Assembly: GCA_044892525.1 (NCBI GenBank)
Contig: CM097885.1
Location: forward strand, 1,178,001 to 1,242,000
Length of the DNA: 64,000 nt
DNA from: Schmidtea polychroa
Lineage: Eukaryota
Reading direction: 5' to 3'
A program made the translations under genes and the position numbers. This document shows positions 12,085 to 62,930 of the stretch, in pieces. Below the pieces are notes generated by a model, which made no database searches, had not been told where the DNA came from, and was given only the letters and a program-made list of their open reading frames with translations. Within the stretch, counting starts at the first letter, position 1, and each line of letters starts with the position of its first letter.

Positions 12085-12582
12085 AACAGTTTATACGGTA
12101 AAACTGTGGAAAACTTGAAAAAAACGTATAAATTTGAGATTTTGCAACAAAAGCAAAAGATTGATAACTTATTGTAGTCATCCTATGTTTCGTCGTAGCA
12201 TCAAGATTGCGGATGATCTCATTGCTGTTATACTCAATAAGGAATATGTGTGCTTAGATAGACCAATGTATATTGGACAAACCATACTTGATTTATCTAA
12301 ACTTCGCATGTACCATTTTCAATATAAAGAACTACAGAGTTATAGAGAAAATTCAATTGTCAAATTAATATTGTAGCCGGTGACACAGATTCCTTCTTTC
12401 TAGAGTGTAAAAATGTAGATTTACGCTTACAACTGTATCCAAAAATGATTGAAGATGGGCTCTTAGATACTTCAAATTATCCAGTGACCGATCCGTTGTT
12501 CTTTGATGAAATTTGTTCTGTAATCGGGAAAGTTAAGGATGAGAATAAAGGAAATCAATATAAAGAATGGGTGTTTCTTTGA
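12085..12582 (+). pseudogene. polB: pPolB fragment (motifs B-C), subfamily B
   Basis: NSLYGKTVENLKK, CLDRPMYIGQ, AGDTDSFF, GKVKDENKG. Confidence 0.9.
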
Positions 12583-55120: not shown

Positions 55121-57057
55121 TTATATGGTTTTTTCTGCCCAGTGCTCTTGAATGCTATATAGAGTCAATTCTGCTAAGCACTGGTAAACGGCGGGATTCT
55201 CGAATATCTTGTCAAAAACTTTCATTGGTATCATATCGTTCTCGGCCAATAAGCTTATCCTCTCATCCTTGCACTCTTCAATACGTCTAAGCCTGTCACG
55301 CTTCACAAATAGTACCTCTGCCAACAGGGCTGGCACACCCAGCCCCCCATTTTTAATTTTACTATTTATAAATGATGAACAAGTATCGGTTGGCAGGTGT
55401 AACCATTTGCGAACCGCGCCTCTAGTCATTTTATCCAATACCCCTAATTCGGTGGTATCGGTTTCCCCTAGCACAGCCTCATGTAAAATACCTGGTATCA
55501 AAAAGTCACTAAGCACCTCTAACTTTTGTTGCGGCTTAATAGGTGCCCTCGTAATATACTCAAGACGTTTAGTATAAAGATTGGATAGCTTTTTAGTAGT
55601 GCGACCAAGGGCTCCAAATTGGATCCCAAAATACTTATAGTAGTCGTCAGCTGACATGGCAGGGAACTCTTCCCCATCAGCACTTACTTTTTCGCTAGTT
55701 ACCATCCATTTTTTCTGCTTACCGTCCCCTCGCGCTATAATGGAGGCACTCTTACTTGGATTAACACTAAGGCCATTAGAAACCAATTCATTTAAAACCG
55801 TTGTTAACAGGTGTTCTAACACCGCTTTGGTTTCACTAACTATTACTAAGTCGTCGGCATACGCCAAAATGGGATAGGTTATTCCCCCCACCTTATAGCC
55901 AATACCAGTTTCATATGCTTTCTGGATGGCGAGATCGATGACATTGTTGAACAGCGCGGGTGAAAGCGGGTCGCCCTGTTTCACAACTTGAAGAGCGCAG
56001 CATGCGGTATAGTTCTCAAGGCCTTCGCGCTAATGCCGTCAGGACCACTAGCCCTTTTCAATTTCATCTTTTTCACAGCAGCTGCGATCTCCTCCAATGA
56101 GATGTGTGCAGCTACTGACTTATCCTCAGTTGTCCTCTGGACAGGCCGGGTATTGGGTTCAGACTCTTTTTCGAAAACCTGTTTCCAATAGTCCCCTCTA
56201 CTCGGCATTGGATCATCCTCCAACAGCAGACTATCCAGCTTACCTTCAAGGATAGTGCTAGCGGCCGCACTTCGATCCTTCTGGAATAATCTCTGCAAAT
56301 CCCCACAAATAGCTCTCTTCCTAGCTACCTTTATGTGCTTTTTAACCTTTGTACCATCCACGGGGACCTGGTACGTTTGGTTAAACTTGTTTTTCCTCTT
56401 TTTGAGTTTTACTTGAAACTGCTTAGTTACTGATAAGCAATATTCATCAAGCAAAACTCGTTGAGAATTTTCATCTTCAGTAAGGATGATCCTATCCAGT
56501 TGGTCCTCATGCCAAATGCTATGACCCTTGCTTCGAGGGAATTTCCTTAAAATAGTCATGATGTCTGGAGATGGACTCGGGGCTTGTGGGTTCTCCATCG
56601 CATCCTCCATGCCCATCCCCTTCATCTTGTCTTCTAACTCTTTAAACACTGCTTTATATTTATTACTATCTAAGTGTTTGCGAATGGATTCCTTTGAACG
56701 TTTGAAGGCTGAACATCCAAGGTGAAGTATATCAAGAAGGTGAGATTGAGGTCTATAACGATTTTCAAGGTGAAGTTGAGCCATGAGGAGCTCTTCTTCA
56801 TTACTCCAGTAATAAGCAGGTTTATTGGAAAGTTTCCTCAAGATGGCCTCATCACGTAAGGTGCGATGGGATTTAGATATATGGACTCCACGTCCCCTCA
56901 GGTTTGGAAAGGCAAAAAGCAATACTCACAGACAAACGACTGTTCCACATCCCTCTCCAGTTTTGTAGCGTTGTTATTTTTATTTGTACTCATTTTCATT
57001 TTACTGGTTGTTGTGGGAGTTCTTTCGTGTTAGATATCCTCCCACATGATACCTAAC
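55121..57057 (-). mobile_element. R2-like non-LTR retrotransposon, internally deleted and 3'-truncated (one C2H2 finger + Myb + RT)
   Basis: FVCEYC...LRGRGVHISKSH finger; Myb WSNEEELLMA...RSKESIRKH...YKAV; ASGPDGI; KQGDPLSPALFN; LAYADDL; YKYFG; PIKPQQKL; VRKWLHLP; GGLGVP. RT motifs 1-3 are missing at ~55984. Confidence 0.92.
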
Positions 57058-58939: not shown

Positions 58940-60319
58940 TTAATTTTCTTTTTTTTCCATTTCATTAAGGGCTGTTTCACGGTCCATATTGTCGTTATTT
59001 AAATTAGTTATTAAACCTTTAATAAGTGGGAGGTATTTTTTAATATTATCGTCAGGTATTTTGTAGGTAAAATAGTTTTCCTCAACAGTTCTGATATTTT
59101 TTTGCATAATAGTAATTTTAGGAATGATTAGTTTAGTATTCTTTATCAGGCATTGGATGAGGTGGCACACAAAAAAGGCAACTGGGATATTCATATTTTG
59201 TGAGTGTAATTGCGAGTGGTGAAACGATTTTTTGCAGATCAAGAATGGTATTCAGTATGCTATTAGCGAAAGATAAGTGTATGGAGTGGCTATCGTCAAG
59301 TAAAGGATCTATTATAACAGCTAATTGTCTCTGCTTATCAAGATAAAAGAAAAACCAGTTGTCTTTGCCATTTGACATTGGCATAATAATTTCGTTCCAC
59401 TCTGCGAAGTCTTTGAAGGGGAAGGAGGAGAAGAAGGTTTTGTAATTATGCATGATTAGAAATTTATCAACATAAGGGTCAACAAAGATGGTAGATTTTT
59501 TCATGGCGAAAGAGTAAACGAGTGCCTTTATTGTGTCCTGGGACCATCAAGCTGATTCCTTATCCACGTTATTTGTGAAAAAGCAATCATTTGTTATTTC
59601 TCTACTATAGTTAAAATCAAAACCATTTAGACAATCTTCATCTGATGAAGTTCGTTTCCCTTCCTTCGTGTTTCAAGGTTATCTGCAATCACCTCCTGGG
59701 TGTTTAATACATTATTCATAATATTATAGTCATAATAATATTGTTAGTATTTGGTAGTATTGGGTGGCGTTGAGCTATATGATTGATAATGCCATCTACT
59801 GGGACCCAGCTCCTACATGCACAGTATATATCGGCATTTTTATCAATAATTCCATTTCTATGTTTTTTTGACCTGTGCTCCCATACATATGCCAATGGAG
59901 TGTCCCAATTCCACGTCTTAAAGCATTTTTTGTAGTTCTTATTGTGGCTATTACATGTGAGGTGATTATTTTTGTCGATTTTAATAAATATCATTTTGAG
60001 GGTATCTTTATCATTTTGTATTTCATGCACATATTGTTCGACATGCCTGTAAATGTTTTTGTGCGTAACCGGATATATTACATAGCGTTCGTTGGCCTTT
60101 GCATTGGCCGCAGTCAATGATGGAGTGTTCTGTGATAATGATGTTGTGCGTACTGATCCAATTTTTCCCTATTGTAAATGGAAATCGCTCCAAAAAAAGG
60201 TGTGCGTAAGTGGTGTCTGCATCTACATTTCGCTCTGGAGTTGAAGTAGTAGAGGTTAGGATCTTGCCTGTATTGACTGCATTGCCAATACCAATGGGTT
60301 CAAATCCCATTTCGGTCAA
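58940..60319 (-). pseudogene. Second, diverged NeSL/R5-like fragment (finger region + Ulp1-like domain), frameshifted
   Basis: ORFs 59716..60117, 59133..59504 and 58940..59242 align with 51115..52700 (IFVDP, EWNEIIMPMSNGKDNWFFF, ILDLQKIVSP, DTPL). Confidence 0.8.
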
Positions 60320-61039
60320 TTTTTTTTCAAATTTTTTTTCAACAAAATATTGTACTTTTACAAATTTTTAAGGTGATTGGTCAACGGCAACTCTTGGAAA
60401 TTTAAGATCAAAAACGTTTTAACTTAAGCTACCAATGTACATTAGATAATTTAATTAAATTTACATTACACATTTAACAAATTTGCTAATAACTTTTACA
60501 ATATTAATTGTTACAAAGTAATTTATATATCAATAAATAGATAATTAAATTTACAATATAAATTATATCAAATTTGTTAATTATTGTCAGATTTGAAAAT
60601 TTACTATGTTGGTTTGAAATATTTTACCACCAAGTTAACATTTTGACCAACAAATTTTTAGATTTTTAATATTATTTAAATATTGAAGTACCACAAAATA
60701 GAGAAAAAAATTTAGAATTAGAATCATCTTTGAAAATAAAAATACTATCAAAACTTAATTTTTCATTGGAAATTTTCGAAATCACGTTGCCGAAATTTTA
60801 CCACCGCGGCGAAGTTTTCATTAATAACTTTTTAAATAATAATTATTATAAAAATATTTTAGCACCGCTGGAAAGATAATAAAATTTAGATTATAAATCA
60901 TATGGGAACTTTAAAATACTAGCAAAATTAAAATTATTCTTGGCAAATATTGCAATCCCAATACCATACTAATTAATTAATTACAAAATTAAACTTTTCA
61001 AATTTAAAATTTTGCCAAAAAGTCATAGTAACTCTAACG

Positions 61040-61181
<142 letters not shown>

Positions 61182-61488
61182 TACGATCACTTCAGATTTT
61201 TTTGAAAAATTTTTTTTATTAGCATTTGTACACTAGCCAAAATACTTAGTCGAATTTCTTGGACTATTTCAGATGGTCGTCTCAATTTTTTAAATAAATA
61301 AGCCTATTTACAACAGCAATATACTGTAGTAAATAGGCTTAAAATTTATCTGTGTGATGAACTGGTAAACGGCGGTCTTTTTTACTCCCGCTGTTGACCA
61401 TTTGACTACTAAGCAGTTACTGTTAACCAGTTATTATTCAGTTATATAGAAATTTATCAATAGCACTGCTACCCAGGAATACAAATAT

Positions 61489-61810
61489 AAGTTACCACAG
61501 GGGTAACTGGCTTGTGGTAGTTAAAAAACCGCCAATAGCCAGTTAACTGAATGCAAAAATGCATTGAAAACACTATTACCACTAGGTTAATTGGATTATG
61601 GTAGTTAAAAAACATCCAATAGCCAGTTAACCGAATGCATTGAAAACACTATTACCACGGGGTTAATTGGCTTATGGTGGTTAATAAACATCCAATAGCC
61701 AGTTAACCGAATGCATTGAAAACACTATTACCACGGGGTTAATTGGCTTATGGTGGTTAAAAAACATCCAATAGCCAGTTAACCGAATGCATTGAAAACA
61801 CTATTACCAC
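61489..61810 (+). repeat. 76-bp tandem hairpin array, copy 3 (4 hairpins; first unit closest to 28S rDNA)
   Basis: Begins AAGTTACCACAGGGGTAACTGGCTTGTGG; later units match those at 3183 and 6383. Confidence 0.95.
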
Positions 61811-62930
61811 AGTAGTAGGATGTGTCCCCTCCAGATCATGTCCCCTCCAGATCACATATACCCCTCCCCCCCTCCCCCCCCCCCGGGAAAAAAAAAATTT
61901 TTTTTTAATTTTTTGTTTTAATTAATTGGCCTGGCGGGCTCACACTTTTTTTCATCCCAAAAATTAATGTTCCTGCCAACAGATTTTATTGACCGATACC
62001 TCATCTTAAAGCTCAGTCCAAGACCTTTCGAATGAGCTATAGGTATCATATATATCTTTAATAGTTTTAATGTTATTAACAATTGATGACCACCATCTTT
62101 TCAACGTTAAATTATTATTATTTTCCAAAATATTATTAAGTGATCCAGAGGGGACCTACTTTTTGTCATCCCAAAGATTAATGTTCCCGCCAACAAATTT
62201 TATTGACCGATACCTCCTCTTAAAGCTCAGTCCAAGACCTTTCGAATGAGCTATAGGTATCTTATATATCTTTAATAGTTTTAATGTTATTAACAATTGA
62301 TGACCACCATCTTTTCAACGTTAAATTATTATTATTTTTCAAAATATTATTAAGTGATCCAGCGGGGACCTACTTTTTTTCATCCCAAAAACTATTGTTC
62401 CCGCCAACATATTATATTGATCGATAGCTTATTTTAAAGCTCTGTGCAAGAACTTTCTAATGAGATATAGATTTTTATCATACGATGACTCATCACATTT
62501 TTAGAACAAAGACAATGACTCATCACATTTTTAGAATGATGTCTAATATTTTAGAATGATGCCAAATATTTTTAAAACGATGTCTATTATTTTTAGAATG
62601 ATGTCTAATATTTTAGAATGATGCCTAATATTTTTAGAATGATTACGTCATACTTTTAGAACGATGCCTAATATTTTTAGAATGATGCCTAATATTTTTA
62701 GAATGATTACGTCATACTTTTAGAACGATGCCTAATATTTTTCGAATGATTACGTCATACTTTTAGAACGATGTCTAATATTTTTAGAATGATGCCAAAT
62801 ATTTTAGAATGATGCCACATATTTTTAGAACGATGCCTAATATTTTTAGAACTATTACGTAATCGATGTCTAATATTTTTAGAATAATGCCAAATATTTT
62901 TAGAACGATGCCAAATATTTTTAGAACTAA
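61811..62930 (+). mobile_element. Probable Polinton-type left terminus (third family) with subterminal ~214-bp tandem repeats and a ~21-24-bp minisatellite
   Basis: Starts AGTAGTAGG; shares TCCAGATCA(C/A)ATATA with the 31867 terminus; poly-C tract as in type-A ends; repeats at ~61945-62470 and ~62483-62930. Confidence 0.55.

Follow-up and report, generated by a model that had tools for sequence, protein, structure and literature searches.

Tandem subrepeats in the intergenic spacers of ribosomal DNA are usually seen as fast-evolving filler or as copies of promoters and terminators, and terminator or fork-barrier repeats, such as the Sal-box repeats of mouse and the terminators of Xenopus and yeast, are found just downstream of the 28S gene. 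Retrotransposons of the R2 type leave variable 5' junctions with deletions or duplications of 28S sequence, and their enzymes are under development for site-specific gene insertion. Amongst planarian elements, the family LIN9_SM of Schmidtea mediterranea has been analysed as a relative of the NeSL clade (Kojima and Jurka 2015, PMC4640811), and in its domain set, as well as in the 28S site and orientation presented in S6 Fig of that paper, it matches the elements described below; 28S-specific families of this kind are mentioned in Kojima 2016 as well. A different link between mobile elements and the spacer is provided by the Pokey transposons of Daphnia, whose repeats, as described in PMC3849761, stem from the rDNA spacer and undergo concerted evolution with the rDNA. 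The spacer subrepeat considered here can be traced to a specific segment of the 28S gene, and several families of site-specific retrotransposons enter the gene at this segment.

The sequence analysed (referred to as the window) is a stretch of 64,000 nucleotides from Schmidtea polychroa, in which three copies of a short hairpin-forming array occur. Tandem Repeats Finder reported 76-bp arrays at 3245-3561 and 6429-6745 (4.2 copies, 95-96% matches), and the third array, at 61489-61810, was delimited by direct reading of the sequence. The arrays and their neighbouring features are as follows.

1 to 3097, minus strand: 5' part (ORF1 region) of a NeSL-like element of family W, continuing left of the window
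3098 to 3136, minus strand: 39-nt diverged 28S-antisense leader with 3 differences from the species' own 28S, ending in GGTAA, the 5' junction point of the element
3137 to 3182, minus strand: 46-nt stretch separating the array unit from the 28S-antisense leader; the peptide it encodes on translation is found again deeper within the same element
3183 to 3561, minus strand: array copy 1, with 5 units, the last of which (3183-3236) is cut after CCCCGTG and joined to the 5' end of the retrotransposon
3562 to 3727, minus strand: 3' external transcribed spacer (3'ETS), from the 28S 3' end to the array
3728 to 4322 (Rfam match 3728-4377), minus strand: 28S 3' fragment, 438 bits, unit positions 11822-12416
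6383 to 6745, minus strand: array copy 2, belonging to the 3.18-kb tandem duplicate of copy 1 and ending with a unit cut after CCACAA
6912 to 7506 (Rfam match 6912-7561), minus strand: second 28S 3' fragment, tandem duplicate of the first
60275 to 61488, minus strand: intergenic spacer which in rDNA units lies beyond the array, aligned to unit positions 2343 to 1 at 87-96% identity, with deletions among the subrepeats
61489 to 61810, minus strand: orphan spacer hairpin array of 4.2 head-to-tail units of the 76-nt variant, corresponding to rDNA unit positions 12963-12644 (98.4%)
61489 to 61549, minus strand: the distal and most 28S-like unit (U5) of the orphan array
61811 to 62050, no strand assigned: terminus of a dispersed repeat, cutting the orphan array inside a unit; similarity among copies stops at 61811

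All the array copies in the window are orphan rDNA fragments, and the stretch 60275-61810 is a 1.5-kb orphan fragment of spacer. The 28S fragments of the window start at position 2389 of the Rfam eukaryotic large-subunit rRNA model, and the one at 3728-4322 begins at CACAGGGATAAC, 4 nt from the retrotransposon insertion point. A 3.18-kb tandem duplication (3199-9550) comprises the array, the 3'ETS, the 3'-terminal 595 nt of 28S and a further 2 kb of ORF-like DNA rich in Asn and Ser, for which no Pfam match was found. The junction at 4322 was considered as a separate event and rejected, as it belongs to a single composite including the array and the 28S fragment, of which seven copies, the two of the window included, are present on one contig arm. 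The end of the third array at 61810 was likewise considered as a second site-specific insertion; it proved to be the end of a dispersed repeat, which has unrelated flanks elsewhere. A search with this repeat (61811-62050) returned 2489 candidates, of which 40 were scored, and most of these matches cover query positions 1-240 only. Elsewhere this very abundant repeat forms inverted pairs spaced 10-15 kb, which points to a large element bounded by terminal inverted repeats. Between 32289 and 45515, the window also holds approximately three tandem copies of a 4.46-kb unit that are 98-99% identical and contain many short AT-rich subrepeats.

Within the canonical intergenic spacer, the array is the subrepeat closest to 28S. 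In the canonical rDNA unit, for which 18S, 5.8S and 28S were located with Rfam on two extracted segments (L021 and L022; 28S at L022:1515-5208), it occupies L022 5386-5757, approximately 175 nt past the 28S 3' end at 5208, and lies between that end and the next 18S gene. On several contigs it recurs along the rDNA arrays every 12.96-13.46 kb. A search of the 781-Mb assembly gave 808 candidates, and the 40 that were scored were all full-length matches with 98-100% identity, so that the array is both present and homogenised across the rDNA units sampled. It consists of five units, four of 75, 75, 75 and 84 nt and a truncated last unit (U5), and this spacing is shared by 19 of 23 rDNA loci outside the window, the other four showing small variants. 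The number of units differs among rDNA variants (3 or 5): variant rDNA units on one contig (C21:30500-31900) carry 3-unit arrays, with the 76-nt variant that is also found in the orphan copies as their middle unit. Doubled arrays on the same contig were considered as an insertion and rejected, since they result from an 870-bp segmental duplication that consists of the 3' 360 nt of 28S, the 3'ETS, the array and 120 bp of spacer.

The initial annotation, made from the window sequence alone, had described a 76-bp array at three loci, two of them just beyond the 28S 3' end, and had known of no described satellite with this architecture. The arrays themselves are real, by Tandem Repeats Finder and by direct reading, and so is their placement, with 28S fragments adjoining the first two window copies. 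They are, however, not confined to three loci but found in every rDNA unit sampled, and the 76-bp period holds for the window copies, whereas the canonical period is 75 nt with the 76-nt form as a variant. The claim of a satellite without precedent falls away, the array being a fixed 28S-proximal subrepeat of the intergenic spacer. As a class it is an ordinary spacer subrepeat; unusual is that it is built from coding 28S sequence and that this very sequence is the target of retrotransposons.

On the rRNA-sense strand the array is the reverse complement of the unit as first annotated, and what had been called the first unit is the last one, U5, distal to the 28S gene. The unit reads in rRNA sense as follows.

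5' arm, 28S-sense-like: CGGTTAACTGGCTATTGG
loop region: ATGTTTTTTAACCA
3' arm, 28S-antisense-like: CCATAAGCCAATTAACCCGTGGTAA
TAGTG, then the linker: TTTTCAATGCATT

The arm that has remained most similar to 28S is kept by U5 (CCACAAGCCAGTTACCCCTGTGGTAACTT). Read on the window strand, AAGTTACCACAGGGGTAACTGGCTTGTGG (61489-61517) agrees with the species' own 28S at L022:4608-4636 in 28 of 29 positions, in antisense (blastn-short, E 3.6e-8), and the inner units match the same stretch, also in antisense, at 24 of 29. When the spacer was compared with the rRNAs across the whole rDNA unit by blastn-short, U5 gave the sole match below an E-value of 0.008. For the antisense arm, the Smith-Waterman score is 53 in U5 against a shuffle maximum of 25, and 31 in U1 against a maximum of 29. 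The reverse complement of the other arm, CCGCCAATAGCCAGTTA (61529-61545), matches TAACTGGCTTGTGGCGG of 28S at 15 of 17 positions (14 of 17 in the canonical rDNA copy), but taken alone this sense-like arm scores at chance level (20-21 as against shuffle averages of 19-20). Thus the single mismatch to large-subunit rRNA and the 15 of 17 antisense match of the 3' arm noted at the outset were both reproduced, the latter with a score at the shuffle mean, and the origin of the unit from the species' own 28S is supported by its alignment to the rDNA. The stretch TAACTGGCTTGTGGCGG was taken in the initial annotation to cover the putative equivalents of U2449 and A2451 in E. coli numbering. Continued 28S homology was considered for the linker TAGTGTTTTCAATGCATT and dropped, since its similarity is to the spacer preceding unit 1. 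Apart from the 28S piece, no element-derived sequence was found inside an array unit. An A-to-G change (GGGGTAAC instead of GGGATAAC) is common to array unit 5 (61503, L022:5741) and the 28S leader of the window element (3118); as this is a single position, it may reflect either chance or local gene conversion.

The 28S segment copied by the array is a retrotransposon target site. On comparing over-long rDNA units with the standard unit, one insertion was found at the classical R2 site and two, of 5440 bp and 1925 bp, at GAAA/(AG)/TTACCACAGGG (slashes marking the junctions), and the latter point coincides exactly with the start of the 28S homology of the array. The 5440-bp insertion contains two long ORFs in antisense to 28S, the second of which matches Peptidase_C48 (E 2.5e-10) and RVT_1 (E 2.4e-32) and shows, by eye, putative CCHC and restriction-enzyme-like motifs at its C-terminus. 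Judged by their sequences, these 28S-antisense elements with a protease and a reverse transcriptase are NeSL-like (LIN9-type). Two families can be distinguished. Family A is represented by at least 40 near-identical copies, and all 30 of its sampled 3' junctions continue with TTTCTGAC, 29 of them running on as 28S antisense; all 11 sampled 3' junctions of family W lie at the same 28S site, so that 41 of 41 junctions of the two families fall at one site. At the 5' end, four independent copies in true 28S genes have junctions from CCCTG/ to CCCTGTGGTAA/, a scatter of 6 nt.

The window element belongs to family W and extends into the preceding sequence (contig C1:1172001-1178000). Its ORF2 is 49% identical to that of family A and has one in-frame stop, and at its 3' end the last 25 nt are missing and it abuts a 5'-truncated R2-like element. 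Complex 5' junctions were seen twice, in an insertion in a true 28S gene (insertion B, contig C202, L033/L034) and at 3098-3182 of the window; in both a 38-46-nt internal piece and a 39-49-nt 28S-antisense leader precede the body of the element, which suggests read-through templates together with template switching. On another contig (C3:696937-872281, L074-L077), 3' ends of family W form a cluster in which they repeat every 3-14 kb, each with just 22 nt of 28S flank followed by unrelated DNA, and the cluster looks like an amplified rDNA-derived segment. R2-like reverse-transcriptase ORFs are present at 55121-56925 of the window on the minus strand (RVT_1, E 2.2e-14), and the same protein family occurs at the classical R2 site of a canonical rDNA unit (insertion C, 7626 bp).

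The boundaries of the array can be compared with the cut site of these elements. In U5 the similarity to 28S runs out at GGTAACTT, 3 nt past the 5' junction point GGTAA/, and for a 29-nt fragment of a 3.7-kb gene to end within 3 nt of the insertion point the chance is, by a rough estimate, below 1%. A further coincidence concerns the repeat itself: units U1-U4 and U5 diverge directly after GGTAA, and the right breakpoint of the duplication is therefore the junction point of the elements. Similarity between the linker and the spacer preceding U1 does not begin before TTTTCAA, leaving TAGTG as filler, and the duplicated block accordingly spans 70 nt, from TTTTCAA.GCATT to GGTAA, plus the 5-nt filler TAGTG. 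Both boundary coincidences are single events, and the phase in which a tandem repeat is read is partly a matter of choice. Identity with the target is confined to one side of the cut, where the upstream half matches at 28 of 29 positions in U5 and 24 of 29 in U1; downstream of the cut the match to 28S is, by eye, limited to CTT in U5, and nothing matches past TTTTC in U1-U4.

One element is joined to a unit of the array. In the first window copy the last unit stops after CCCCGTG and the 5' junction of the element lies at 3182/3183, whereas at two paralogous loci the unit is uninterrupted past CCCCGTG and continues with GTAATAGTG. The joint has the same three parts as the 5' junction of insertion B in a true 28S gene. 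Its 3' side has been lost to rearrangement and the junction is unique in the genome, and it may therefore have arisen by recombination instead of insertion. The target-like strand of the array is the rRNA-sense strand, so that an element at this position runs with polymerase I, while in 28S the elements are in antisense. Amongst the 41 sampled 3' junctions of families A and W, none lies within an array. The proposal of the initial annotation that the array might be a landing pad for an rDNA-specific endonuclease gains substance from the NeSL-like elements that target the copied segment and from the element joined to a unit, and is weakened by the absence of arrays from these 41 junctions.

Each unit is predicted to fold into an imperfect hairpin of approximately 48 nt (-19 to -23 kcal/mol, z from -1.7 to -4.1) with a run of six T in the loop, and the 3'ETS and the array folded together give a z of -6.5. 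Conservation of the stems was assessed on 13 distinct units from this genome: none of 20 pairs was changed on both sides (covariation score 0.000), and 82.7% of the cells are paired as against 82.6% in shuffles. Relative to U5, the inner units show two changes that extend the base of the stem and one that turns a C:G pair into C·A (G·U on the other strand), and unit 4 carries a fixed pair-breaking G-to-T change. The initial impression of stem-preserving drift is not sustained by these figures, the two stem-extending changes and the wobble standing against a fixed pair-breaker with no excess and no covariation. Rfam at a permissive threshold returned only sub-threshold chance matches, the best in the array being mir-9 with 19.9 bits against a cutoff of 58.6. 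Neither compensatory stem changes nor a match to a curated RNA family, the marks of a small-RNA precursor, were found, and the suggestion that the hairpins yield small RNAs antisense to the peptidyl-transferase centre (PTC) is left unsupported. A scan of metagenomes with the hairpin pattern gave no matches, and a run labelled organism B contained the array with no differences, which is uninformative on conservation.

Two sequencing runs, both presumed to be RNA, bear on the 28S 3' end and the array. In run X6, 61 contigs of 28S end at L022:5206-5208 with A-runs and one ends at 5226; provided that the run is RNA, these A-runs mean polyadenylated 28S. Coverage in X6 does not extend past approximately 5250, although contigs alone cannot show that the array is silent. 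Reads of rRNA in oligo-dT libraries are described in a planarian paper (PMC10954484). In run X1, a single 106-nt contig covers L022:5485-5585 at a depth of 20, compared with approximately 90,000 on 28S, and carries the extra C of the 76-nt variant; transcription of the array is not thereby demonstrated.

Considering these observations together, we find it moderately probable that the array is a pseudo-target repeat created and reshaped by cleavage at the 28S site of the retrotransposons. The founder would have been a short antisense piece of 28S which, with a partial inverted copy of itself, formed a hairpin, and it may have been captured during the repair of a break made by a NeSL-like (LIN9-type) endonuclease; such a capture is suggested by the 28S piece ending at the entry site of the elements. 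The 70-nt block from the linker to GGTAA would then have been duplicated in tandem, with the 5-nt filler at the cut position, through further breaks at the matching position of the pseudo-target. Concerted evolution could subsequently have fixed the array and kept it uniform in all rDNA units, where the units would persist as weak half-site pseudo-targets that are occasionally cut or used and otherwise carried along. We infer that both kinds of break, founding and duplicating, were the work of the endonuclease, and that no function of the array is aimed at the PTC. The array is thus probably a by-product of site-specific retrotransposons, not a device against the catalytic centre of the ribosome. 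Of the origins put forward initially, birth by fold-back at a break fits best, to which the present analysis adds that the site of the break would be the cleavage site of a retrotransposon.

Given where the array lies, the main rival to an origin by cleavage is a possible host role in termination or fork arrest. The hairpins, or a palindromic protein-binding site, would then mark a zone of RNA polymerase I termination, 3'-end processing or fork arrest, and the likeness to 28S would be an accident co-opted by the host. The array is the first repeated block after 28S, some 175 nt downstream, is nearly identical in all rDNA units sampled and folds into stable hairpins whose loops each contain a T6 run; in mouse, frog and yeast the corresponding place is taken by terminator or barrier repeats. 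A loose likeness may exist between TTAACCCGT and the yeast Reb1 site. Against such a role, covariation is at 0 of 20 pairs, paired cells are about as frequent as in shuffles (82.7% and 82.6%), unit 4 has a fixed pair-breaking G-to-T, and the number of units varies (3 or 5); we regard such a function as unlikely, though with a chance worth keeping in view. The same lack of covariation agrees with a neutral spacer repeat unrelated to retrotransposons, in which a random fragment of 28S underwent fold-back at an ordinary break and matches the insertion site by coincidence, as do the commonness of fast-evolving subrepeats in spacers and the count of 0 of 41 element 3' junctions in arrays. It would, however, have to accommodate a 28S homology ending no more than 3 nt from the insertion point in a gene of 3.7 kb, for which the rough chance is below 1%, a unit boundary that also falls at GGTAA, and an element joined to a unit at that position, and we give it a rather small chance.

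The remaining rivals, a decoy and an RNA directed at the PTC, are minor. Five pseudo-targets per rDNA unit could divert the endonuclease from 28S, or offer a harmless site in sense orientation with read-through by polymerase I; an element inserted in the array would indeed run with polymerase I, as opposed to antisense in 28S, and one such sense-oriented case is present in the window. Insertions into 28S are nevertheless still abundant, with at least 40 near-identical copies of family A, arrays are absent from the 41 sampled 3' junctions, and the pseudo-targets are degenerate (24 of 29) and devoid of the downstream half-site, all of which makes an adaptive decoy or safe harbour very unlikely. 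A form of host-element accommodation, in which the five-fold pseudo-target array acts as a decoy or safe harbour shaping where elements land and was itself expanded by their endonuclease, we consider to have a small chance. As to an RNA device, small RNAs from read-through, or a cis-antisense stretch, would pair with the PTC region of 28S or pre-rRNA. The hairpins resemble precursors in shape, and the predicted pairing of the U5 arm with the 28S site (-62 kcal/mol) is far stronger than its own hairpin (-20); on the other hand, covariation is absent, Rfam matches are sub-threshold (mir-9, 19.9 bits against 58.6), and in the inner units the match to 28S has decayed (24 of 29), whereas a guide sequence should have kept it. 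This last reading appears extremely unlikely, and the more dramatic idea of an array directed against the peptidyl-transferase centre is removed by the result.

If the endonuclease made and enlarged the array, off-target cleavage by an R2-type enzyme and the ensuing repair would have left a dated natural record in the spacer of this planarian, and the natural set of near-targets (24 of 29, 28 of 29, half-site only) could be used to define what such an enzyme needs for recognition. In the open-access papers searched, we came across no spacer repeat traced to 28S or to the target of a retrotransposon. With known arrays of spacer subrepeats the present array shares the short tandem units, the place as first block after 28S, the presence in every unit, concerted evolution and a variable number of units. 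Unlike the terminator arrays of spacers, its unit is built from 28S coding sequence as an inverted repeat. The comparison with LIN9_SM is close: the 120-nt 28S antisense stretch given in S6 Fig of Kojima and Jurka is, by eye, letter for letter that of L022, the elements described here enter 28S at the identical point and in antisense, and the arm of the array is a copy of the upstream half of that target. It differs from the target shown in the figure in lying in the spacer, in matching at 28 or 24 of 29 positions and in having no downstream half-site, and the 3' ends of the element families found here differ from the LIN9_SM ends displayed there. Like those of R2-type elements, the 5' junctions are variable, scattering over 6 nt and in some cases including duplicated 28S leaders and internal pieces; unlike them, one junction joins a unit of a spacer repeat instead of 28S. 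With Pokey, as far as it is described in PMC3849761, there is in common an exchange of sequence between an rDNA-specific mobile element system and the rDNA spacer, and it is the nearest described parallel found, with the direction reversed: in Daphnia the element carries repeats of the spacer, whereas in S. polychroa the spacer carries the target of the element.
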